In this document: positions 1-11,156 of the stretch, piece by piece
Numbering within the stretch: the stretch's first letter is position 1
Layout: each line of letters starts with the position of its first letter
Assembly (NCBI GenBank): GCA_028279685.1
Contig: JANQNG010000051.1
Coordinates: 9-64,008, forward strand
Direction: 5' to 3'
DNA from: Candidatus Nanoarchaeia archaeon
GTDB taxonomy: Archaea; Nanobdellota; Nanobdellia; Woesearchaeales; SKIA01
Length of the DNA stretch: 64,000 bases
The notes under the pieces: generated by a model
The model's input: the letters and a program-made list of their open reading frames with translations, nothing else
The model's database searches: none
What the model was told of the DNA's origin: nothing
Made by a program: the position numbers and the translations under genes

Positions 1-369
1 ATTCAAATTTACACGGAGTCGTTTTTCAAGATCGTGCTTAATCTCTGTACTGAATTTAAAATAATCTATCTGTACTTCTTTCAGTGCTTCAGTCCGCTCA
101 ACATTAATCTCCGCTACTGCTTCTTCTATCCCTTTGTAATCATCACGTATCTTTTGTTTGATTTGAGCTTCAATATTTTTTTTCTGAGGAATACTCTCAA
201 TAAACTCATCAAAACTCTTCCTGTCATTGATTTTCTGAATTCGCTGTTTATACTCTTGAAAAATCCCTTCATCATGAACAGCACCTGATAATTGCGCAAG
301 CCAGTCTTCCGCAGATAATCTATAGGTTACTGCTAATATATTTGTGAATATTTCATCTTTTGTTACCAT
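1..369 (-). CDS. hypothetical protein, N-terminal 123 codons only (gene runs off the window start); charged and helical, coiled-coil-like
   Basis: Open-ended, so absent from the supplied track. The ATG at 369-367 lies 2 nt after the TAA (374-372) of the 868-aa ORF. I translated minus frame 369->1 by hand and found no stop (MVTKDEIFTNILAVTYRLSAEDWLAQLSG...). Confidence 0.55.
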   Translation of the reverse strand, partial: MVTKDEIFTNILAVTYRLSAEDWLAQLSGAVHDEGIFQEYKQRIQKINDRKSFDEFIESIPQKKNIEAQIKQKIRDDYKGIEEAVAEINVERTEALKEVQIDYFKFSTEIKHDLEKRLRVNLN

Positions 370-371
370 GT

Positions 372-2978
372 TTATTCATCTTCAAACAATTCTTTAATGT
401 AGACATTTCCATTTCTATTCAAAGATCTATAACATTCCTGTTTAATATATTCATCTTCGAATCCCATTGATCGTAATGTATCAACAGCCAAATCTATCAT
501 CTTATATTTCTCCTGCATAATTTCATTGTGCTCAACTTCAATTTTTTTGACAAGTGCAGTGAGTGTATTATTTATTTCTTCTTTCATCTTATTTTGTTCA
601 GCTACTGCAGCATCGTATTTCTTTTTTGCAGCACCTCTGAGTTTTTCAAGAGGATTAGCAAGAATAAGATCACGCTCATGATATGAATTACATCCTCTTT
701 GCCACTCCACAGTAGCCCAGCCCCCTAAAGCATCTCTGCCTCCATCACCAAAATTCTGCTTTAATATTCCTCCTTCTTTAGGAATCTGATTATCACATCC
801 ATAAAATTCGGAATCTTTACGCAGCTTTACTTTAGCTCCAGCTCTCATTTCTCCTCTGAAGATTTCATCAAAGTGAAATGCCTTTTCAACAGGAGCTAAT
901 TTACATTCAATATTTACATTATAACCCTCAATATTAACCCAATGACAGTCTCCTCCACGAGAATGAGTGCCTTTGTATTTTGCAATGGTGTTTTTTTTAT
1001 AACCATTTTCTTTGTCTTTTTCAAGGAGCACAACTTTTTGTCCTTTCTTGAATTTCTTCTTCTGCCCTTCAATAATCCTATATCCTTTAAAAACATACTC
1101 TGACAAGTTTTCTTTAAAATTTACATACTCCTTCTCAGCCATTGTGGCATCTGGATATCGAATAATAAGTTTCATCTCATCCTTAACAGCCTGAAGAACT
1201 TTCCAAGCAAGATTAGCATAACTTACTTCATCAAATTCATTGATCTCCTCAAAGATTGTTCTCTCCTGCAAAGCATCTTCACTAATAATATCTCTATACT
1301 CTTTTACTCTATTATAAAAGAACCATGTTATAACTCCTTCAGGAATACCCATTGCCCTAAACGTATCAAGACTGGAAGTGATTAACTCTTTTCTCCATTG
1401 CTTTTGTTGTGCATATTCTCCTTCAGCCTCTTTAATAATACTTTCAAATTCTTTAAGCAATCCTCCTGTTATCTTTTCAATCTCTTCATTTTTCTTTTTC
1501 ACAGCCTCTTCATCAATCTCTTCAATGTTTACATCGATTTTTTCTATATCAGCATAATTTCTTGGAAGTCTGTCTCCAAATCCAGGAATATGATGAAATT
1601 CGATCTCATAGTGATTATTATCACGCCCTTTGCCAACAATATATCCCCAACTACCTTTTTTAGTGTGTTTATATTTTTCTCCATTAATAACTGTTGCTTT
1701 TCTTCGTCCCGCCTCAAGATTTTCAATATCGAACTCAAGCTCCTCAGCTAATACTATTTCTTCAGGATCTAGGTCAAAATCATATCCATCCAATTCAGAT
1801 CTGAATTCATCACCATCATAAAATCCTAATGTTCCGAGAGGAAGGCCATTAAGCAGAGTGCCATCAGCATATGCATTCCCTTTCAATGCTTTCACCGTAA
1901 TAGCAGATTTGTTCATCTCAGGAGCTTTTTTTGTCTTCTTATACATACTAATTTCAAAATGCAAAAGCTCTCTTTTGAACTTCTCATAATCTTCTTCATC
2001 GTATAAATCATCTAAGACATCACCTAAAAATAGATATAATCCTTTGCGCTCTCTAAGTTTCATTACAATATCTTTTGCAATATCTTCATAATCAAATGAC
2101 TTACTTTCCATCTCTTCAAATTGTTTCAAAATGTCTTGAGTATATCCAAAGCGAGATCGCAATACGCGATTGTATTGCTCTATAGCGTCTTCTATCTTCA
2201 TCTTCCTCAGTTTTTTCGTATGTTTCAATCCAAGGCCGATAATCACTCTTGTAGTTATATCCTCAAGACTTTGTTCAGGATCATTGATCATCTTTTGTAG
2301 ATTTGAAGATTCTTTTTTTGGGAGAAACTGTGCACTTTGTCCGATAAAGATCAATCGTGAAATCTCTTCTATTGTATTGACGAACTGTAAACGATGTTCA
2401 TATCCTTCAGTTAACGGTTTCAAAGCATGTGCAGCAATAAGTGATTCAGAAGAGAATCCTGTGAATAAAGGATTTTGGTATTCTTCGATAATCTCTTCTA
2501 CAACAGGAGTCTTTTTCTCTTCTTCAAGAACAAACTCTCCTGTTTCTATTGAAAATAATCGTTCAAGACTATCTGCAGCAGATCTGCTGAACGCAACAAC
2601 ATACTCATCAAAGGATACATTATGCCGTTCTTTCACAGAAATATGATGTTTAGCTATAGACTCTTTTGCAGCTAAAAAAGAGATGAATGTTTGCATTGAA
2701 GGAACATGCTCATTAGTGAGCATTGTTTTTGCAGATGCCATATTGCCATTTGCAAAATAAGAAGCAAGCATTCCAAAATAAGGCTGCTGTATCTCATGAT
2801 CAATTCTATTTTTTGAATCACTGCGTTCGAGTACAGAAGCTATTTTTTTGACAGGATCAAATGCTACAGGAGCCCATGCTATCTCTTCTTTGCCCCCAAA
2901 TTTTTGATTTTCAATACCTTCATCTAAAAGATCTGCTAAAAAATCATCTTCCTCAATAATCTCTTCTTGTTCTGTCAT
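372..2978 (-). CDS. large hypothetical protein (868 aa) with three SH3/MIB-HERC2-like beta modules and an internal module/coiled-coil/DT(F/L)R(A/S)MG duplication
   Basis: Long ORF whose ATG overlaps the stop of the E1 gene (ATGA at 2975-2978). The module at aa 711-773 (AGAKVKLRKDSEF...GGWATVEWQRGCNSYHERDLIL) fits the G-x-V...W-x-G...V-x-W-x-x-G...Y...DL pattern of MIB/HERC2-type domains. Weaker copies lie at aa ~425-480 and ~641-695. Confidence 0.8.
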   Translation of the reverse strand: MTEQEEIIEEDDFLADLLDEGIENQKFGGKEEIAWAPVAFDPVKKIASVLERSDSKNRIDHEIQQPYFGMLASYFANGNMASAKTMLTNEHVPSMQTFISFLAAKESIAKHHISVKERHNVSFDEYVVAFSRSAADSLERLFSIETGEFVLEEEKKTPVVEEIIEEYQNPLFTGFSSESLIAAHALKPLTEGYEHRLQFVNTIEEISRLIFIGQSAQFLPKKESSNLQKMINDPEQSLEDITTRVIIGLGLKHTKKLRKMKIEDAIEQYNRVLRSRFGYTQDILKQFEEMESKSFDYEDIAKDIVMKLRERKGLYLFLGDVLDDLYDEEDYEKFKRELLHFEISMYKKTKKAPEMNKSAITVKALKGNAYADGTLLNGLPLGTLGFYDGDEFRSELDGYDFDLDPEEIVLAEELEFDIENLEAGRRKATVINGEKYKHTKKGSWGYIVGKGRDNNHYEIEFHHIPGFGDRLPRNYADIEKIDVNIEEIDEEAVKKKNEEIEKITGGLLKEFESIIKEAEGEYAQQKQWRKELITSSLDTFRAMGIPEGVITWFFYNRVKEYRDIISEDALQERTIFEEINEFDEVSYANLAWKVLQAVKDEMKLIIRYPDATMAEKEYVNFKENLSEYVFKGYRIIEGQKKKFKKGQKVVLLEKDKENGYKKNTIAKYKGTHSRGGDCHWVNIEGYNVNIECKLAPVEKAFHFDEIFRGEMRAGAKVKLRKDSEFYGCDNQIPKEGGILKQNFGDGGRDALGGWATVEWQRGCNSYHERDLILANPLEKLRGAAKKKYDAAVAEQNKMKEEINNTLTALVKKIEVEHNEIMQEKYKMIDLAVDTLRSMGFEDEYIKQECYRSLNRNGNVYIKELFEDE

Positions 2979-4468
2979 GCTTCTTGAACCTCTTCTTGCA
3001 AAAGATGAGGATTTGCTTCAACAAATGCAGCAACATCTTCATCTGAAATTTCTAAATCAGGAATATTGTGATGATAACAATCACAGATATCAACTAAAGG
3101 AGAAGTACCGAATCGTTTTTGACCTGTTGATCTGTAGACTTGTTCTCCGTTGAATGGCTCCCCAAAAACATCTGGTCGAAGAACAGTATATGCATCAAGC
3201 ATCGCTGCAACTGCTCCAATAGCGTTGCTCATCACAACAGAAGGATCAGGATTTGCAGCGCAGCTCGCTCTTCTAATCATCTCTTCCTTTCTTCCCTCTT
3301 CATAGATATTGAACATGCAATCCATGCATTGCGTCTTTCCTTCTTGATGTATATCCCATCGTGCGCTATACGGCAATGCTCCTGCGCTTATGGAAGGAAT
3401 TCCTTTTTTGATAGCATATGCTGCATTAATTGCTCTTGTATAACTATTATCAACAAAATCAAACACCACGTCATATTTTATATCAGTATCAAATCCTGGC
3501 AAGATCAAAAGATTATACCCAGTTGATTTTGTTTTTCCTTTGCTCATTTTTTCTATTTTATCAGCAACATGTTCTGCTTTTAGTTTGTCAATACCATCAT
3601 ATGCTAGTATCTGCCTATTAACATTATGTGATTCAAACGTATCGTAATCATACATATCAAGCCTGCCAAATTTCATCAATGTTCCTGCCACGGCACCCCA
3701 GCAGCCTAAACCACCTCCTCCAAGCATAGCAGCAGAAAAATTTTTCAATCCCTTTTCACCAATGAGAGTAGTATTTTCATTCTGAGGAAATCCGAAGCGA
3801 TATCCCTCGCCAAGTTTATACCTCACAGGATCTTCAACTAATGGTTCGCCAAAGATTGCTTTTCTCACCTCTTCTGTAATTACTCCTGCCATAATAAGCG
3901 CCATTAATGCGCTCTGTTGATGTCCTTCAAACATAGGCATAAGAAATGCAGGATCCTGCACTCCATTGACGGTCATAAGTTTTGTATAGCCAGAACGTGA
4001 AGATGTGCTAAGCACGGGAATATCATTCTCTTTTCCATACTGGATCGCCCATCTCTTTGATGCTGCATCATTTGTTGCATCAATAATAACATCAGCACCT
4101 TCTAACGTCAATTGATCTATTCTTGATTCCAGATTAGTTGTATAGCCCTCTATAGTAACCTGCTTATTGATTTTCTGCATAAGCTGAGGATATTGTTCTG
4201 CTTTTGCCCCTTTAGGAACAGACATATCAAGAAACATCTCTCCTCTCTTCACATTACTGCCATCAATCAACACAATATTGCCAACACCTAATGATGTCAT
4301 ACATAACGCAGCATAGACTCCTTGATGATCAAGCCCAACAACAGCAACACGAGCCTGTTCTAATCGTGCTTGTCCATCATCTCCCCAAAGTAACTTCTGA
4401 CGAGCATATCGGTCTTCCTCAATCATCATACCATCTTTCTTTTTCATTGTATTTTCCTCAATGCTCAT
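2975..4468 (-). CDS. ubiquitin-activating E1-like enzyme (ThiF/MoeB/UBA superfamily) with tandem degenerate and intact adenylation domains
   Basis: N-terminal half: DRYARQKLLWG...VAVVGLDHQG...DGSNVKRGE is a ThiF-like fold lacking both the GxGxxG and NxxRQ motifs. C-terminal half is intact: LGGGGLGCWG, DYDTFESHNVNRQ, DFVDN, CMDC...CDC zinc pair, and Cys403 (RRASCAANP) between them. Confidence 0.85.
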   Translation of the reverse strand: MSIEENTMKKKDGMMIEEDRYARQKLLWGDDGQARLEQARVAVVGLDHQGVYAALCMTSLGVGNIVLIDGSNVKRGEMFLDMSVPKGAKAEQYPQLMQKINKQVTIEGYTTNLESRIDQLTLEGADVIIDATNDAASKRWAIQYGKENDIPVLSTSSRSGYTKLMTVNGVQDPAFLMPMFEGHQQSALMALIMAGVITEEVRKAIFGEPLVEDPVRYKLGEGYRFGFPQNENTTLIGEKGLKNFSAAMLGGGGLGCWGAVAGTLMKFGRLDMYDYDTFESHNVNRQILAYDGIDKLKAEHVADKIEKMSKGKTKSTGYNLLILPGFDTDIKYDVVFDFVDNSYTRAINAAYAIKKGIPSISAGALPYSARWDIHQEGKTQCMDCMFNIYEEGRKEEMIRRASCAANPDPSVVMSNAIGAVAAMLDAYTVLRPDVFGEPFNGEQVYRSTGQKRFGTSPLVDICDCYHHNIPDLEISDEDVAAFVEANPHLLQEEVQEA

Positions 4469-6398
4469 CTATGTCATTTCTATCGCTTGTCCCTGAAGAT
4501 CCTATTGGCGTATTATCCCTAATTCTCTTGTATGCCTCAATAACAATAGGGACGTAGTTCTCCAACAGTTTATTTCTTCCTTCTGTACTTGCTTGCGCAA
4601 AGCTATCCATGAACTGCCAGGTAAACTCATCAGCATCTCCAATATAGATCAATTCATGAATTGCATTAGATATAGCATCATCAAGTCTATATGCGCCTGG
4701 CATTTTATGCTTTTTGACAACAAATTCATTATCAGGAATCAAATCACCAACTCTCAATACCGAAGAGGAAACACCGAATAAGAGAGGATCTGTCCTTGGC
4801 CTAGCAGCATACCTATTGACATATGTTGACATCTTATCCAATAAAAACCACGCATAGGTTGAATATTTACATCCTACACTTCTTGCCTCAACAATATAAG
4901 CAGCCAAAGAATAGACAAACCGTTGAGCTATTTCCTCATATTCAAGTGAACTTTCTATCCTAATTTTCATCTCTTGATCATTAGGTAATCTCGTTGATGC
5001 CTTTGTTACTGATCCTCCTTCATTAAGCGCTTCCAATAATGAATTGTCTTCTTCAACAGGTGGTTCCGGCAAAACTAAACTATCCAGGCTTTCCTGTAAC
5101 GTTCTTGGATGCTGATGAATAGGGTAATTTCCGCTATAGATTCCTTCCTGATATATGTAATTTTCATCCTGCCAATTTCTTACTCCAGAAGGCACATTTG
5201 AAACATGAGTTCCATGCATTCCATCTCCTCTAAGAGCACCTGCCACTTTCGCAACAACTTTTTGTTTAGGAGGGAATTTAACACGTTCTTTGACAAGCGC
5301 AGCAACTTCTTCTTTTGTAGGAATATCTATTCCTTTATTCCTCACAATAAGATGCAATCCATTTTCATCATTAGTATCTACGGTAGCATAATTTACTTTT
5401 CCTGTGAGCTTGAATTTCTCCTCAATACCCATCTTAATGTACGGTCCGCCTTTTGCATTATTGAAAACAAAACTTACCGCCGTATGCACTAATCTGGGCT
5501 CGTATGTTCGCTCATCAATTTGCTCTAGCAATCTTGCCAAGAAGTCAGCCTTTTTGAATCCATTGCCATTTGGCTTCAATCCAAATTCATCAAGCAGATT
5601 AAAAAACATCTCATCGTCAGGATAGATGAATCTTTTAACAGCATCTGATAATGCATCACCCTTCAAGCAAAGCTGATCCTCACCATACTCTTTTCTAATT
5701 TTATCTTCAATTAAAGCATACGGTGATTCAATAATACGTCTCGATGTTTTAGCCATTTTATTCACGAGGCTCTTCAAAGACTCATCATCATCTATGCTAT
5801 GATAAAGAGAAGCTTCCTTGTTCCTGTTAGATCCAAAAGGATGAATATGGAACATTGCACCTAAGCGATATTCCGTTCCATTTTCTTTATTCAAAGCCCT
5901 ATTTTCTCTTGCTACTTGATCGTAATGCTCCGCAATTCGGATATCTCTTGAACTAACGGGAAGATCTTTAGGTATAATAAAATCTCTGAATGAAAAAGTA
6001 TCATCGTCCTTATTGATCAGAAAAAATCCTCCTACTTCAAGCGCTTTCTTTCCTTGCTTTTTTGTTTCAGAACCTATCTTATACCCTAATTGCAAACATC
6101 TATCAGCAATATAGATTGTTCTGGGAATAATATCAGTAATAGGCTCTATAGGTTCTGTTTCTTCCTCTTCATCAAGAAAAGTATTAAATAATTCATCAGC
6201 GTAATCTTCATGAATATCATCTAGATTTTCTCCCCTATTAGCAGGACCGTGAATTTGACAGGTTTCATCCAGGCATTCTTCTTCAGCAATAACTTTTGTA
6301 ACAGGAGTTTTTCTCTTTTTTCTTCTCTTCCGACCTGTTTTACTACTTTTTTTATTCGTTGTCATGATCATCACCTTCGAGCGTAATTTTTTTCTCAA
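4458..6398 (-). CDS. JAB/MPN+ (JAMM) metalloprotease-domain protein with basic N-terminal tail and ~430-aa C-terminal extension
   Basis: ALEVGGFFL (Glu121) followed by MFHIHPFGSNRNKEASLYHSIDD gives E...HxH...SxxD with a longer than canonical spacer. The stop overlaps the E1 start by 11 nt. The true start may be Met10 or Met12 (GGTGA upstream). Confidence 0.8.
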   Translation of the reverse strand: MRKKLRSKVMIMTTNKKSSKTGRKRRKKRKTPVTKVIAEEECLDETCQIHGPANRGENLDDIHEDYADELFNTFLDEEEETEPIEPITDIIPRTIYIADRCLQLGYKIGSETKKQGKKALEVGGFFLINKDDDTFSFRDFIIPKDLPVSSRDIRIAEHYDQVARENRALNKENGTEYRLGAMFHIHPFGSNRNKEASLYHSIDDDESLKSLVNKMAKTSRRIIESPYALIEDKIRKEYGEDQLCLKGDALSDAVKRFIYPDDEMFFNLLDEFGLKPNGNGFKKADFLARLLEQIDERTYEPRLVHTAVSFVFNNAKGGPYIKMGIEEKFKLTGKVNYATVDTNDENGLHLIVRNKGIDIPTKEEVAALVKERVKFPPKQKVVAKVAGALRGDGMHGTHVSNVPSGVRNWQDENYIYQEGIYSGNYPIHQHPRTLQESLDSLVLPEPPVEEDNSLLEALNEGGSVTKASTRLPNDQEMKIRIESSLEYEEIAQRFVYSLAAYIVEARSVGCKYSTYAWFLLDKMSTYVNRYAARPRTDPLLFGVSSSVLRVGDLIPDNEFVVKKHKMPGAYRLDDAISNAIHELIYIGDADEFTWQFMDSFAQASTEGRNKLLENYVPIVIEAYKRIRDNTPIGSSGTSDRNDIDEH

Positions 6399-7791
6399 TC
6401 ACCTCAACAACCATATATCTTTTTTCTATGGCCTGTTCTCTTGTCATTGATCCTTGCTTCAGAATATTATCAAGATGATCTCCAAAATATCGATATCCTG
6501 AATGTGAATCAAGGCTCGATTTATTCAGAGGCTGGAGAAATACATTTGCAGCATCACTGAGTTTTCGTATCATATCGCTTATCGTATTTCTATAATCGCG
6601 AGGATTTCTACTAAGATTGCACAGTGTTCTATATCCTCCTGAAGATCTGCCTTTTAAACAAGGATGAAATTCCCTCTTTTCAACAATAAGAGGATTACCT
6701 GTTGTGTATGGTTTTTTATCCCATCCAATTTTGATAGCGACGCGAGTTGCTTCATACGGCCAGAAAACATCATGATTTCTGCCATCTTGCGTAACAAATT
6801 TCGGCAGTCGTGAATAAACATAATAATCTCCATTTTTTAAGATAAACCCGCACTCTCCTAAATCGTACTCATCAAGTTTCGCAAGCTCATGCATCTGCAT
6901 CCCAGTAACTTCTTTTGTTTCAATCTGATCTTTAATCTGATCAAACGCATCCTGGCTTCTTTCAAGAGCATTAATACGCCATTTCTTTTTGCTTCGCTCG
7001 ATAAATTCATGTTCTATCTCTTTAAGAGAAGGTAATCTTTCTTTTGATAGAGATAATATCTTACCATCAATGTTGAATACAAATTGATCTTTTTTTGCAG
7101 CCTTATGTTTCTGCAATGCCAAAAAATTTCTGCCAACAATGTACAATGCAAAAACTTTTCCATCAACAACATATAATGGTTGATATGCAGTTATTTCTCC
7201 CAATAATGATTTTGGAACGCCATTAGTATGTACAAATTGAGGAACAATTGCACCAGTTTTTATTTCTCTTTTCTCTTTTTTGAGCACTGATTGTCTCATC
7301 CTTTCAGCAGGATCCTGCTTTTCTCCCATTTCCATATTGCCGAAATCAGCTGTAAGTTTCTCTCTAATTTCTTTCTTGGCTCTTTCAAGAGGCTGTTCAA
7401 CTTTTGTTTCTTCAAAAATTTCCTCTTGAAGCAACTCATCAGAGACGTATTTTTTACTTAGCAAATACGGTAAAAACTCTTCCATAATGTAATGTAATGC
7501 ATGTATTCTACTCTCTTCTTGCTTCAGTTCACTTTCCGCACGCAATTCTTTATCAATTGTATCTTTGACAAATTCTCTGGAATATGATTCTATACTTTTT
7601 CTCTGTAACTGCTCATCAAGCAATTCCCATTCTCGATAAGAAAGCGATGGCATTATAGGTAATTGTATCTCTCCTGCTTGTAAAAAATCAGAGGATTTGC
7701 CGGAATCAATTATACTAAACACTCTTCCTTCATAAAGAATAAAGGAAGATTCCCTTTCGGCAATCCTTTCTAAAAAACTCGTTATTTCCAT
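6352..7791 (-). CDS. hypothetical protein (479 aa) with candidate E2/UBC-like catalytic core in the C-terminal third
   Basis: aa ~320-425: YYVYSRLP...WPYEATRVAIKIGWDKKPY...REFHPCLKGRSSGGYRTLCNL...ISDMIRKLSDAANVFLQPLN. This resembles the UBC layout: beta sheet, HP(N) flap, Cys, then a helix ending in P-L-N. It sits between the 205-aa ORF and the JAB gene. The assignment is inference only. Confidence 0.45.
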   Translation of the reverse strand: MEITSFLERIAERESSFILYEGRVFSIIDSGKSSDFLQAGEIQLPIMPSLSYREWELLDEQLQRKSIESYSREFVKDTIDKELRAESELKQEESRIHALHYIMEEFLPYLLSKKYVSDELLQEEIFEETKVEQPLERAKKEIREKLTADFGNMEMGEKQDPAERMRQSVLKKEKREIKTGAIVPQFVHTNGVPKSLLGEITAYQPLYVVDGKVFALYIVGRNFLALQKHKAAKKDQFVFNIDGKILSLSKERLPSLKEIEHEFIERSKKKWRINALERSQDAFDQIKDQIETKEVTGMQMHELAKLDEYDLGECGFILKNGDYYVYSRLPKFVTQDGRNHDVFWPYEATRVAIKIGWDKKPYTTGNPLIVEKREFHPCLKGRSSGGYRTLCNLSRNPRDYRNTISDMIRKLSDAANVFLQPLNKSSLDSHSGYRYFGDHLDNILKQGSMTREQAIEKRYMVVEVIEKKITLEGDDHDNE

Positions 7792-7815: not shown

Positions 7816-8433
7816 TTAGCTTTGCAAAGCATATCCTGGCGTAATAATAGCAGATACAACAAGCTCGATACCAGCCATCATCTCAACAGGCTTATCCTTA
7901 TCCATAACACGTTTATCTTTTTCTCCTATTTCATCAATTGGCTTTGGAACCTTCTTTTTGCCTTCCTGAACAAAACCCATCTTAACAAAATAACTATTCA
8001 GCATCGAATCTCCTGTCACTCTCTGTCCATTAACACTAAGAGCATAACCTCTAAAGTTTCCTCCTCGCTTTGCTGCTAAATCTTTGACTTCTCCTGTTCC
8101 TAGCATTTCGTCTTTGATACGATCAATAGCTTCCTGCTGTTTCCTGTTAATATTTCTCTGATATTTTGCTCTGTCTTTTTCAGGAACTGCTTTACCGCTC
8201 AATTTCACTTCTTCGCCAATTGTATACTGTGCAATTTGCTCTGCAGTACCATATGCGAGAATCGCTCTGTCTTGCCCTCTTACCGAGTAGGTAACACGAT
8301 CACCCTCAATACATCCAGGGTAAACAGTTAATGCCATAGGCATATCTCCTATATCATCCAGCGTAAATGCCTTCTTTCTTATCTTCTTTTCACCATCTTT
8401 ATTTTCCGGTCTTTCGCCATCGTATTTTCCCAT
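7816..8433 (-). CDS. hypothetical protein (205 aa); possible Ubl/substrate candidate of the operon
   Basis: ORF preceded by a GGGGGAAAG SD-like motif. Internal ...DLAAKRGG|NFRG (aa 118-128) followed by a ThiS/MoaD-like YALSVNGQRVTGDSM stretch. There is no C-terminal GG. Confidence 0.6.
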   Translation of the reverse strand: MGKYDGERPENKDGEKKIRKKAFTLDDIGDMPMALTVYPGCIEGDRVTYSVRGQDRAILAYGTAEQIAQYTIGEEVKLSGKAVPEKDRAKYQRNINRKQQEAIDRIKDEMLGTGEVKDLAAKRGGNFRGYALSVNGQRVTGDSMLNSYFVKMGFVQEGKKKVPKPIDEIGEKDKRVMDKDKPVEMMAGIELVVSAIITPGYALQS

Positions 8434-8473: not shown

Positions 8474-8707
8474 TCAGGATGTCTTATCCTCCTTGCCTTC
8501 TACAAGATTATGTATATCCTGAAATTGACGATCATAATTTCTTGTCATAAGATTAATTATTTCTGTGGCATCGCAATCAAAAATAATCTCTCTCCAAAAT
8601 TCAGCATTAAGAAAGCTTCTTTTTAAACCCTCTTTCCGTGTGATGTGCAAATCTAGCTGATTCAACAAAAATGGATAATTATTACGGATTTCCTTCGTAT
8701 CGAACAT
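8474..8707 (-). CDS. hypothetical small protein (77 aa), first gene of the operon
   Basis: ORF only. It is co-directional, 40 nt upstream of the next gene and downstream of an AT-rich promoter-like region. No recognisable motif. Confidence 0.45.
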   Translation of the reverse strand: MFDTKEIRNNYPFLLNQLDLHITRKEGLKRSFLNAEFWREIIFDCDATEIINLMTRNYDRQFQDIHNLVEGKEDKTS

Positions 8708-8841: not shown

Positions 8842-10209
8842 ATGGATACGTTAGCAACAATAATCAGATCAATCAATGGAAATACTCCAGATCCTGAAGA
8901 GGTAACTCTTGAAGAACTCCCCATAGATTATAAAGAATTTTGTGATCAACTCATAGAATCTACTGCAAAAACATTAGATCTTTCTTTAAAAAGAAATAAA
9001 TTTCTCCATACAAGCAACGATGATGCATTAATTCCAAATGCCGCAAAATATATCAAATCAGCCATTATTAATATGCAGAAGAATTCATTAATTCCAGAAC
9101 TAAAAATTGGGGAAAAAGTAAGGCCAGTTCAACTTCTAGGGTTTGATGTTGAAAATCCTGATAAAGAAACGTATTATTATGGAGGAGACACTGATGATAT
9201 TCCTTTAGGCATAGAAGCTTTTGTAGCAGAAATTCCTACGAAAGAAAGAATAAAAGTGATCATAAAAAATGGAAAGCAATCTAAGATATGGCAATTACAC
9301 CCTAATGAAATAGAAACAACAAGCGAGAATATTTACTCTGCCTTGATGGAAAGTAATCGTATTGAAACATCACTTAGTGAAGATGTGAAGAAATTATTCC
9401 CTGGATTTATTCACAGAGCCAAAATTCTTGTTGATAGTAGTTATGCTCTCTCAAAATCATTTGTTCCTTTAGATATTGAGATGCCAAAAGCACTCGCACC
9501 CTTCTCCATTTACACTAGTTCTCTTGAACAACAACTTATTGAAAAATATGGAAGGCCAGATATCAGCAAACTTAAATTACGATGCAAGATAGATGAAGCA
9601 GAAGAAAAAAATTGCAATACCGCTGTTCCAGGATTCAAATATAGAAGAGATTACCAGCATCTCGCAAAAGCATTCAAAGGACTCAAGACTCCTTGCTCAA
9701 TGCACGTTCACTCTCTTGATGAGTTAAAGATGCATATTTCAATTGTTTACCAGATTGCATTCAATCATTATGTCCTCGGTAAATCTACAGCAATGCAAGG
9801 AAGATTTCCCAATAATTGCTGTGGAGAGTCAGGAGGAAATATGTTTAATTCATTATTGAATTTTGGATATGTCAATACCTTTAAAATGAGCAGCAATAAT
9901 GATCATTGTTATGTATCACTTCCTTTTGTCCTTGATGGAGTTGGAGGTTGTGTTGTTTGCGACCCTACTTCCAATCAGATGTGGCATAAATTAAAGATTG
10001 CTCCTAGAAATGCAGTTTTTATTATGTTAGGACCAGATTTTGAATACAAAACACATTGGCATGGTGGTGTTGATCTTATTCCAGGATCTTGCAATTATAT
10101 CTCAATAGAGAATAATCATGCTTCAACAAAGAATGGAGAAATAAGAAAATCATTGGAAAACGCTTACAATAATCCTGTCAGATTATTCAATCGAAATGAT
10201 ATTCTCTGA
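8842..10209 (+). CDS. hypothetical protein with C-terminal papain/transglutaminase-fold Cys-His-Asp core
   Basis: NNCCGESGGNMFNSLLNFGY...NNDHCYVSLPF...GGCVVCDPTSNQ (Cys326/327, His355, Asp374). This has the order and spacing typical of transglutaminase-like cysteine peptidase cores. Divergently transcribed from the E1/JAB operon. Confidence 0.55.
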   Translation: MDTLATIIRSINGNTPDPEEVTLEELPIDYKEFCDQLIESTAKTLDLSLKRNKFLHTSNDDALIPNAAKYIKSAIINMQKNSLIPELKIGEKVRPVQLLGFDVENPDKETYYYGGDTDDIPLGIEAFVAEIPTKERIKVIIKNGKQSKIWQLHPNEIETTSENIYSALMESNRIETSLSEDVKKLFPGFIHRAKILVDSSYALSKSFVPLDIEMPKALAPFSIYTSSLEQQLIEKYGRPDISKLKLRCKIDEAEEKNCNTAVPGFKYRRDYQHLAKAFKGLKTPCSMHVHSLDELKMHISIVYQIAFNHYVLGKSTAMQGRFPNNCCGESGGNMFNSLLNFGYVNTFKMSSNNDHCYVSLPFVLDGVGGCVVCDPTSNQMWHKLKIAPRNAVFIMLGPDFEYKTHWHGGVDLIPGSCNYISIENNHASTKNGEIRKSLENAYNNPVRLFNRNDIL

Positions 10210-10255: not shown

Positions 10256-10486
10256 TTATCTTCTACCACAACCACAAGATTTAACTCCGCATTGACCGCC
10301 GCATGTTCCACCGCAGCTACTTCCAGCTCCACACGCTCCTGGTCCACACGTCGGTGCAGAAGCTTCCTGAATAACAGGATTTTCCTCTACTGGTTCTGCC
10401 TGCTCCTGAAATGAAGTATAGGCAAATACTGTACCTGCTATAATCACAACAGCAAACACAACCACCATAATAACTTTCCATTGCAT
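10256..10486 (-). CDS. small membrane-anchored Cys/Gly-rich protein (76 aa)
   Basis: N-terminal TM helix (VIMVVVFAVVIIAGTVFAY), then CGPGACGAGSSCGGTCGGQCGVKSCGCGRR. Strong AAGGAGG SD upstream of the ATG. Confidence 0.6.
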   Translation of the reverse strand: MQWKVIMVVVFAVVIIAGTVFAYTSFQEQAEPVEENPVIQEASAPTCGPGACGAGSSCGGTCGGQCGVKSCGCGRR

Positions 10487-10643: not shown

Positions 10644-11156
10644 TTATAGCTTGATTTTGAGATATACTCTATTGGTCTTTCCTTTTTTCTCTTTTTTCAC
10701 AAGATTCTTCTTCTCAAGTCCTGCTAATACAATGCTTAATTTAGATTTATGAAGGTCTGTTCTTAATCTTAGAGTTTGTTGAGAGATTCCATCTTGCTCC
10801 TTAACAGCCCTTATTACTTTCTTCTCATCATCATTAAGCCCTTTAAGCAACATAGAAAACTTCTCTTCCTTAGTCTGATGTTTCTTCTGCTTTTTAAGCG
10901 TAGAAACAATTTCTTTCTGTGATTTTTCAAAGAAAATCAAGTATACTCCTAAAGCAGCAATAATAGCTAAAATAATAACAGATATGATGGTAAGCCAAGG
11001 TGTTTCTTGATCATGAGGACAAAAAGATTCTTCGCCGTCAGTACAACTACAACTAGCATCAGTAGTGTCTGCAATTTGTTGATGAAAAAGAAAAACAAAT
11101 ACTGCTAGAAGAACACAGGCAACAATCAAAATAACCCCTAACTTCTTATTATCCAT
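10644..11156 (-). CDS. membrane-associated winged-helix transcriptional regulator
   Basis: Two TM segments flank a CSCTDGEESFCPHDQE loop. The C-terminal wHTH-like region is DDEKKVIRAVKEQDGISQQTLRLRTDLHKSKLSIVLAGLEKKNLV. Confidence 0.5.
   Translation of the reverse strand: MDNKKLGVILIVACVLLAVFVFLFHQQIADTTDASCSCTDGEESFCPHDQETPWLTIISVIILAIIAALGVYLIFFEKSQKEIVSTLKKQKKHQTKEEKFSMLLKGLNDDEKKVIRAVKEQDGISQQTLRLRTDLHKSKLSIVLAGLEKKNLVKKEKKGKTNRVYLKIKL

Follow-up and report, generated by a model that had tools for sequence, protein, structure and literature searches.

The window analyzed here, a stretch of 64,000 nucleotides from contig JANQNG010000051.1 of a Candidatus Nanoarchaeia archaeon, carries a gene for a protein of 497 amino acids (aa) related to ubiquitin-activating (E1) enzymes. 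We consider it likely that this protein is a single-chain, pseudo-dimeric adenylyltransferase of the E1 type with one active site, and we add to this assignment a proposal, based on the operon, for its substrate and for the relay that follows activation. The reading was computed from the homology of the two domains, the asymmetric conservation of their residues, a predicted packing like that of the eukaryotic E1 Uba1, and the conservation of the operon. Judged from sequence and structural model, the protein is a hybrid that joins the core of canonical E1s, an inactive adenylation domain (IAD) followed by an active adenylation domain (AAD), to a cysteine on the crossover loop, as in the non-canonical and prokaryotic enzymes.

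Tandem ThiF-type domains in a single chain

The open reading frame (ORF) is intact over the interval assigned to it in the initial annotation, which gave no strand. The gene lies on the minus strand, and a plus-strand gene in the same interval is ruled out by a frame full of stops. Checked codon by codon, all of the motifs quoted in that annotation sit where it had placed them: RYARQ (aa 20–24) and GLDHQG (45–50) in the N-terminal half (N-half) and GGGGLG (250–255), NVNRQ (282–286), DFVDN (337–341), CMDC (381–384), C403, and CDC (462–464) in the C-terminal half (C-half). Such agreement goes far beyond what chance would give. The Pfam ThiF family (PF00899) matches the protein in two separate stretches (E = 2.4e-44), and PADLOC E1 models (aa ~20–156 and aa ~240–320) and PDB sequences each match the two halves independently, together within aa ~13–170 and aa ~232–400, in agreement with the earlier claim that aa ~18–165 keep the ThiF scaffold. 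Furthermore, the profiles of the two halves align with each other over 198 columns (hhalign Prob 98.6%, E = 8.6e-16). Based on these matches, the sequence is that of a true tandem of two homologous ThiF-type domains. An internal duplication had also been read from a 'YR...RFG' ending common to both halves; this argument was dropped, since the hairpin at the C-terminus is also a feature of MoeB and ThiF.

Conservation was read from a 33-sequence alignment. The database search that supplied the homologues returned ~30 full-length proteins (53–66% identity, 482–517 aa) and three distant ones (26–30% identity), and all of the named homologues come from metagenome bins of Woesearchaeota or Nanoarchaeota. 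G250-x-G252-x-x-G255, D271, D274, D276, N282, R285, Q286, K297, D340, and C403 are invariant or near-invariant in the C-half. The active set that the initial annotation had read as intact at aa ~245–470 is borne out, since the G250-x-G-x-x-G loop, N282, R285, Q286, K297, and D340 are invariant in the C-half only. The cysteines of a predicted zinc site (C381/C384 and C462/C464) are near-invariant as well, although C384 is a histidine in two homologues and the site is missing from the three most distant relatives.

Of the corresponding residues, the N-half retains G45, G50, D69, and, at the position of K297, a basic residue, and has lost the N, R, and Q of NxxRQ throughout the family. It also carries an invariant Thr132-Asn133, as opposed to Thr-Asp130 in MoeB and Val-Asp340 in the C-half. 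The departure from the GxGxxG loop (GLDHQG), previously taken as a mark of inactivity, is real in the window sequence but particular to it. Because many homologues carry GLGPQG (a GxGxxG loop) in the N-half, the glycine loop does not discriminate; the reliable sequence marks of inactivity are the loss of NxxRQ and the invariant Asn133.

The N-half had also been described as lacking the NxxRQ 'arginine finger' region. The loss of NxxRQ stands, but the arginine-finger label does not. The RYxRQ helix is kept, with R23 and Q24 at least 90% conserved, including in distant archaeal relatives and one bacterial relative. R23 aligns with MoeB Arg14, and the hhalign comparison of the halves finds no C-half counterpart to aa 1–31. 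In the MoeB–MoaD complex, the arginine of the RYxRQ helix (MoeB Arg14) reportedly reaches the ATP site of the partner subunit. In the structures of asymmetric E1s (NAE1–UBA3 and SAE1–UBA2), it is the inactive domain that gives an arginine to the partner's ATP site. A trans-arginine mechanism of this kind predicts that R23 is kept in the N-half and that the helix is missing from the C-half, as seen.

The candidate catalytic residue, Cys403, lies 19 residues past C384 and directly ahead of a re-entry motif, PSVVMSN, that aligns with the re-entry segment of UBA2. We take its position to be that of MoeB Cys187 and ThiF Cys184, based on a motif comparison with the MoeB sequence. An AlphaFold2 model built with the 33-sequence alignment has a mean predicted local distance difference test (pLDDT) score of 89.2 and a predicted template modeling (pTM) score of 0.90. 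The only internal stretch with pLDDT <50 is residues 404–406, right after Cys403.

A Foldseek search of the PDB with this model gave single-chain eukaryotic Uba1, UBA6, and UBA7 as all of the best 50 matches (E ~1e-18 to 1e-16, 570–750 columns), with template modeling (TM) scores of 0.58–0.66 normalized to the 497-residue query. One half of ~230 residues could not reach such a TM-score, so both halves are placed as IAD and AAD. The model thus supports a packing of the N-half and C-half like that of the Uba1 IAD/AAD pseudo-dimer, with one ATP site, and the N-half does not model as the unrelated Rossmann fold that would have spoken against such an E1. The conservation pattern, the model, and the invariant Cys403 all agree with the asymmetric, single-site, one-chain E1 with a crossover-loop cysteine that was proposed in the initial annotation. 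The path from C384 to C403 consists of one helix (385–401, ~17 residues) and a loop, leaving no insert for a cysteine domain, and the 32 residues after C464 contain one helix and no ubiquitin-fold domain (UFD). In the alignment and the model, the 497-aa protein has neither the first and second catalytic cysteine half-domains (FCCH and SCCH) nor the UFD.

Table 1. Position of the E1-like gene, its domains and residues, and the partner genes in the window
Feature	Position	Strand	Basis
E1-like protein, two ThiF-type domains and short C-terminal tail	2975..4468	-	Uninterrupted ORF, 497 aa
Degenerate (inactive-type) adenylation domain, N-half, aa 16–228	3785..4423	-	PDB profile matches to ThiF, Uba4, MoeB (E ~1e-18); NxxRQ not conserved
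Arg23 of RYxRQ, equivalent of MoeB Arg14, proposed to act in trans as arginine finger of the C-half site	4400..4402	-	Conservation and alignment
Asn133 in place of the Mg-binding Asp	4070..4072	-	Invariant; aligns with MoeB D130 and C-half D340
Active adenylation domain, C-half, aa 237–465	3074..3760	-	PDB profile matches to SAE2/UBA2, TcdA, MoeB, Uba1 AAD
GGGGLG nucleotide-binding loop, aa 250–255	3704..3721	-	Motif and conservation
NVNRQ, aa 282–286	3611..3625	-	N282, R285, Q286 invariant
Asp340 of DFVDN, Mg-binding Asp	3449..3451	-	Invariant
C381-x-x-C384, first half of predicted Cys4 zinc site	3317..3328	-	C381 at least 90% conserved
C462-x-C464, second half of predicted zinc site	3077..3085	-	Both at least 90% conserved
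Cys403, candidate catalytic (thioester or persulfide) Cys ending the short crossover helix-loop	3260..3262	-	Invariant in 33/33
C-terminal tail, aa 466–497, with conserved LEISxxDVxxF helix, not a UFD	2978..3073	-	Alignment; helix 476–485 in model
205-aa protein, candidate ubiquitin-like protein/sulfur carrier, likely E1 substrate	7816..8433	-	Gly-ending body and tail, operon position
479-aa protein, candidate E2-like acceptor, C-terminal domain aa ~296–470 with Cys391	6352..7791	-	HP[CFY]-x(6-12)-[IL]C signature
646-aa protein with JAMM/MPN+ motif, candidate tail-processing or deconjugating peptidase	4458..6398	-	E121...H184-x-H186...S201-x-x-D204
868-aa protein, always after the E1, start overlapping the E1 stop by 4 nucleotides	372..2978	-	ORF and conserved order

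The operon and its partner proteins

Across loci, the gene order is (SufS-type desulfurase, ~500 aa)–(~650 aa)–205 aa–479 aa–646 aa–E1–868 aa (one to four paralogues)–(B12/radical SAM). The core, from the 205-aa gene through the JAMM-motif and E1 genes to the 868-aa gene, keeps its order in the genomes of 14 DPANN species and on several metagenome contigs. All five core genes of the window are intact and lie close together, with overlaps of 4–47 nucleotides and one gap of 24 nucleotides.

The 205-aa gene opens the core operon in 13 loci. The conserved body of the family ends in ...GGVELVVSAIIxPG(200), where A195 and G200 are invariant, and is followed by an unconserved tail of 2–27 aa. It also contains a ThiS-like '...VNG...' pattern. 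A terminal glycine followed by a variable tail is the sequence pattern of the precursor form of a ubiquitin-like protein (Ubl) or sulfur carrier, which makes the 205-aa protein a candidate for this role. The clearest hint to its nature comes from small proteins encoded upstream of distant archaeal tandem E1s, whose sequences have the look of Ubl precursors: one (L019, 628–1059) ends in ...EVSAVQQGG followed by LYNLLRYS and the other (L004, 8140–8544) in ...FVNG followed by EK. When the L019 protein, which has the GG ending, was used as a phmmer query against the PDB, the result was negative.

The 479-aa protein has an invariant cysteine, C391, in the consensus HPCLxxRxxxGGFxxICNL of the close DPANN family. 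An exhaustive hidden Markov model search with the C-terminal domain, run against 1.84 billion representatives, gave 102 relatives, nearly all of them proteins of 420–550 aa with the domain at the C-terminus; none was a typical short E2 (ubiquitin-conjugating enzyme). Over 72 diverse relatives, H376, P377, and C391 are at least 90% conserved (consensus HPFL-x9-IC). The AlphaFold2 model of the protein has a pLDDT of 79.8, with values of mostly 83–94 in the C-terminal domain, and in this domain runs from a helix through a beta-meander and the HPC loop to Cys391 and then a long helix. This is also the order of elements in the ubiquitin-conjugating (UBC) fold. Alignment of the domain with E2s (hhalign) is collinear through beta2–beta4, the HPN motif, the cysteine, and alpha2, but with Prob <1%; the E2 alignment consisted of four E2 sequences and BilB from its published description, and the comparison was repeated with an 82-member alignment of the domain. 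We therefore treat the protein as an E2-like candidate on its sequence features and do not call it an E2.

The signature of the close DPANN family (window 6619–6666, minus strand; aa 376–391) contains H-P-C, the motif with the catalytic cysteine in the E2-like enzymes Atg3 and Atg10. The cysteine of H-P-C is a phenylalanine or tyrosine in the wider family, where only the downstream Cys391 is conserved. A zinc site formed by H376, C378, C391, and H430 was also considered and dropped; H376 and C378 vary in two archaeal loci (L010 and L016) and in the wider family, and C391 is constant.

The label of the 646-aa protein as JAMM comes from its motif (E121-x-G-G, H184-x-H186-P, and H200-S201-x-x-D204), of which E121, H184, H186, S201, and D204 are invariant in 13 orthologues; profile searches against Pfam and the PDB gave no match. 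In the distant archaeal and bacterial systems, the counterparts are shorter, carry HSH-x(7-8)-SxxD, and match Prok-JAB of Pfam weakly. The 868-aa family is poorly conserved, with one to four paralogues per locus, and paralogues elsewhere carry C-terminal radical SAM domains. The window protein has no match in Pfam, PADLOC, or NCBIfam. Within its aa ~440–800, three segments resemble small SH3-like or MIB/HERC2-like beta-barrel repeats (e.g., 'GAKVKLRKDSEFYG...GGWATVEWQRGCNSYHERDL'). Profile searches gave no match for these repeats, and an orthologue gave only a weak match to SH3_12.

In ~9–10 of the 13 loci with upstream sequence, the first gene of the operon encodes a desulfurase of the SufS family (NCBIfam TIGR01979, E = 6.5e-103). 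The window has in this place a 77-aa ORF (8474–8707, minus strand) that matches residues ~80–120 of SufS-type desulfurases and looks like, from its sequence, the remnant of a decayed desulfurase gene. No other desulfurase is present in the 64-kb window, and the ~650-aa gene that usually follows the desulfurase is absent from the window locus. Both genes are also missing from the L010 and L016 loci. In another locus (L012, upstream of 6175), each of them is split into two ORFs (92 and 408 aa; 121 and 522 aa), which suggests frameshifts, decay, or assembly errors. The split ORFs and the remnant in the window suggest that the desulfurase and the ~650-aa gene are dispensable. The ~650-aa protein (L001, 4308–6269, and orthologues) carries an invariant C-terminal cysteine cluster, CPTGGC...C..., that may accept sulfur or form a metal site; the protein has no family matches.

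Downstream of the operon, other loci have B12/radical SAM genes and radical SAM-fusion paralogues. In the window, the edge cuts an ORF (4–363, minus strand) directly downstream of the 868-aa gene. This ORF matches aa 10–129, the N-terminus, of a radical SAM fusion paralogue (L009, 15311–17581), a sequence match indicating that the operon probably continues past the window with a radical SAM fusion gene. Divergent from the operon is the gene for a 455-aa protein (8842–10209, plus strand) without a radical SAM domain. Its ~150-aa N-terminal domain is common to the 868-aa family and to the 750–840-aa radical SAM fusion paralogues found elsewhere. Further along, the window encodes a 76-aa peptide (10256–10486, minus strand), predicted to be membrane-anchored or secreted, with a Cys/Gly-rich C-terminus (CGPGACGAGSSCGGTCGGQCGVKSCGCGRR). 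It adjoins a membrane protein with a winged-helix (DUF7343/MarR-like) domain at 10644–11156.

Five bacterial loci (L020–L024) from Acidobacteriota and Syntrophobacteraceae (e.g., L022, 10253–17033, and L020, 9163–12500) hold what appears to be an uncharacterized cousin of the archaeal system; the match in L024 was to the C-terminal domain only. The bacterial tandem E1s are shorter (417–425 aa) and have a more degenerate N-half (GDDDLL; DLTRY), yet keep R-x-x-RQ. Their neighbors include a JAMM-motif protein and a ~410-aa HP...C protein, and also a ClpX-like AAA+ ATPase, an Amidoligase_2 enzyme, and a metallo-beta-lactamase (MBL)–tetratricopeptide repeat (TPR) protein. Because the bacterial tandem E1s adjoin JAMM and HP...C proteins, the three together form, by sequence motifs and gene order, a module conserved in archaea and bacteria.

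Proposed relay and rival readings

Our proposal extends from the E1 to its partners through the inferred identity of the substrate, the processing of its tail, a thioester at C403, and transfer to the 479-aa protein. The JAMM-motif protein would trim the variable tail of the 205-aa protein and expose Gly200. The C-half would bind ATP-Mg and the C-terminal glycine of the carrier, and adenylate Gly200. The N-half, its catalysis lost, would replace the second subunit of the MoeB/ThiF homodimers and probably supplies R23 in trans. Cys403, on the flexible crossover loop, most likely attacks the acyl adenylate. The acyl group may then pass to the 479-aa protein, at Cys391, and be attached to targets, which would parallel the bacterial BilABCD system. 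Taken together, the minimal IAD-AAD E1, the HP...C family of E2-like proteins, the giant JAMM protein, and the carrier with a cleavable tail, in most loci coupled to SufS and radical SAM genes, may constitute an undescribed Ubl-type transfer system of DPANN archaea and a few bacteria, an interpretation that we put forward tentatively.

Several points weigh against this proposal. The 205-aa protein has no detectable Ubl similarity in a PDB profile search or in the annotations of its homologues, and its family showed no similarity to ThiS, MoaD, ubiquitin, Urm1, SAMP1, or BilA (hhalign). Neither Pfam (the window protein, 13 orthologues, and 72 relatives), NCBIfam, nor a PDB profile search matched the 479-aa protein to an E2, and a Foldseek search of the PDB with its full-length model also returned no E2. 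The packing of the E1 is an AlphaFold prediction by a method whose training included E1 structures, and the E1 assignment, with the thioester at Cys403, is likewise a prediction. The contact of R23 with the active site is probable by homology. Lastly, the SufS-family desulfurase that heads most loci and the accompanying radical SAM enzymes point to sulfur chemistry rather than, or as well as, tagging.

The last of these points leads to the activation of a sulfur carrier, a possible but less probable function. The E1 would adenylate Gly200, Cys403 would take a persulfide derived from SufS, and the thiocarboxylate of the carrier would donate the sulfur; the JAMM protein would only trim the tail, the acceptor reaction could involve the radical SAM paralogues, and a dual role in sulfur transfer and tagging is included. 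The E1-like enzyme, JAMM protein, and tail-trimmed carrier of the QbsCDE (QbsD/QbsE) and CysO/Mec+ systems serve sulfur transfer, and the Urm1/Uba4 and SAMP/UbaA pairs combine sulfur transfer with tagging. The desulfurase at the head of the operon, the B12/radical SAM and radical SAM-fusion genes that follow it, the ThiS-like pattern of the 205-aa body, and ThiF and MoeB as the best NCBIfam matches of the E1 are all consistent with such a function, as is the position of C403, presumably equivalent to ThiF Cys184 and MoeB Cys187. However, the five-gene core is intact in the window, where only the 77-aa remnant of SufS is left, and two other loci also lack SufS. The E1 has no rhodanese domain, the sulfur-carrier E1s covered in reviews are all symmetric homodimers, and a plain sulfur relay would have no obvious use for an HP...C protein with an invariant cysteine. 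Because the core persists without SufS in the window and retains the invariant Cys391, we weakly prefer conjugation or a dual role over plain sulfur transfer.

Other alternative readings fare worse. It is unlikely that the N-half is not silent and binds a nucleotide or a second carrier, giving two sites, or that the protein also homodimerizes. The conserved G45, G50, and D69, the basic residue at the K297 position, and the true GxGxxG of many homologues could be read this way, but the Mg site has an invariant Asp-to-Asn change, the N, R, and Q are lost, the N-half has no zinc site and no cysteine in the equivalent of the crossover loop, and the C-half has no RYxRQ helix to complete an N-half site. 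Also improbable, and slightly more so, is a pathway for ribosomally synthesized and post-translationally modified peptides (RiPPs), where the E1-like enzyme would adenylate the C-terminus of a precursor as MccB and PaaA do (amide, cyclization, or N–P chemistry) and radical SAM enzymes would tailor the product. MccB (E ~6e-20) and PaaA are among the matches of the C-half, and the B12-binding radical SAM enzymes of the clusters weakly resemble RiPP and methyltransferase families. Yet both score below UBA2, TcdA, and MoeB; the 205-aa family is conserved in its 200-aa body and variable in a coreless tail of 2–27 aa, the reverse of a leader/core precursor; and the invariant terminal glycine and JAMM partner follow the pattern of a Ubl or carrier. 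We give the least credence to a dehydratase or adenylyltransferase like TcdA/CsdL that acts on nucleic acids or small molecules with a CsdA/SufS-type desulfurase, has no protein substrate, and is unrelated in function to its neighbors. The C-half has TcdA among its best matches in the PDB and NCBIfam, the operon is linked to a SufS/CsdA-type gene, and E. coli encodes TcdA beside CsdA–CsdE. Nevertheless, TcdA scores no better than UBA2 or MoeB, the zinc site and invariant crossover cysteine are features of Ubl-activating relatives, and the gene order with Gly-terminated, JAMM, and HP...C proteins is strictly kept in the archaeal and bacterial versions.

If the operon does encode an undescribed Ubl-type transfer system, asymmetric E1s on a single chain have arisen, or survive, beyond eukaryotes and the Bil systems, and the window protein could be either intermediate in form or a separate reinvention of the core of canonical E1s. 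In this family, the duplication of the domain and the loss of one site are uncoupled from the gain of the cysteine domain and UFD, and its small size (~500 aa) makes it a tractable model for why E1s turned asymmetric. The operon also reveals three uncharacterized protein families and a possible link among Ubl activation, sulfur mobilization, and radical SAM chemistry in very reduced genomes.

Comparison with known E1 systems

Profile searches of the PDB place the halves differently among E1 relatives, although ThiF, MoeB, and Uba1 are among the PDB matches of both. The C-half profile finds SAE2/UBA2 first (E = 1.6e-24), with TcdA, MoeB, Uba4, ThiF, the Uba1 AAD, MccB, and UBA3 close behind and BubCD also among the matches. 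The N-half profile matches ThiF, Uba4, and MoeB (~1e-18) ahead of NAE1 (1e-14) and SAE1 (5e-11), which gives no support to a specific kinship of the N-half with eukaryotic IADs. Because the N-half is no nearer to eukaryotic IADs than to ThiF, MoeB, and Uba4, common descent of the fusion with eukaryotic E1s is not demonstrated.

Reviews describe canonical E1s as eukaryotic proteins that combine the IAD/AAD core with FCCH/SCCH and UFD, and non-canonical E1s as symmetric homodimers with the cysteine within the adenylation domain or the crossover loop. The family described here mixes these definitions, pairing an asymmetric covalent core with a primitive catalytic loop, in archaea. Like canonical E1s, which are its best structural matches, it is predicted to have a pseudo-symmetric IAD/AAD core and a single ATP site. 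Its predicted Cys4 zinc site, with one half in the crossover and the other in the re-entry region, resembles that of UBA2, the best sequence match of its C-half. Unlike canonical E1s, the window protein has no FCCH, four-helix bundle, SCCH/Cys domain, or UFD, is half their size, and carries its candidate catalytic cysteine on the crossover loop.

Among prokaryotes, BilD is the only E1 described with an IAD and an AAD; literature searches gave no report of an archaeal or DPANN tandem E1. BilD belongs to BilABCD, an antiviral ubiquitination-like system encoded as bilA-bilB-bilC-bilD (Ubl, E2, JAB deubiquitinase, and E1), usually with capH/capP, in which the JAMM peptidase pre-processes a Ubl bearing a C-terminal extension (10.1101/2023.09.26.559546). 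In BilD, the IAD and AAD are accompanied by an ~80-aa alpha-helical CYS domain in the crossover loop (10.1101/2023.09.26.559546); the initial annotation had also cited Bil-type E1s as a known inactive-active fusion. In Bil operons, the E1 is encoded beside a JAMM peptidase, an E2, and a Ubl precursor, to which the JAMM-motif, HP...C, and Gly-terminated proteins of the window are candidate analogues. The likeness in sequence is marginal, however, and limited to the AAD region: the E1 family profile aligns with E. aridi BilD (sequence from 10.1101/2023.09.26.559546) with an hhalign Prob of 25.7%. In place of the ~80-aa CYS domain there is a helix of ~17 residues between the CxxC and Cys403. This low score and the lack of a CYS domain rule out a BilD orthologue. 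The partners also come from other families, are far larger (479, 646, and 868 aa), and follow another gene order, and the host is a DPANN archaeon with linked SufS and radical SAM genes and no identified regulators of the CapH/CapP type.

The window protein shares with MoeB, ThiF, Uba4 (MOCS3), UbaA, UBA5, and ATG7 the adenylation domain, the zinc site, the crossover-loop cysteine, and a possible link to sulfur mobilization. Those proteins are symmetric homodimers of a single domain with two sites, whereas the window E1 is predicted to be a covalent, asymmetric pseudo-dimer with one site and has no rhodanese domain. Cap2, the E2-E1 fusion of cyclic oligonucleotide-based antiphage signaling systems (CBASS), and BubCD, a peptidase-E1 fusion without a catalytic cysteine, are prokaryotic E1 modules that likewise occur in operons with JAB-type peptidases. 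Both are homodimeric with a single adenylation domain, and the window E1 is fused to neither an E2 nor a peptidase. Membership in Cap2/CBASS was rejected; the PADLOC E1-E2 models match the ThiF parts only, and the neighbors have no PADLOC matches. By its sequence and model, the E1 of the window falls outside both the canonical E1 and the BilD families, as these are defined by their Cys domain and UFD.

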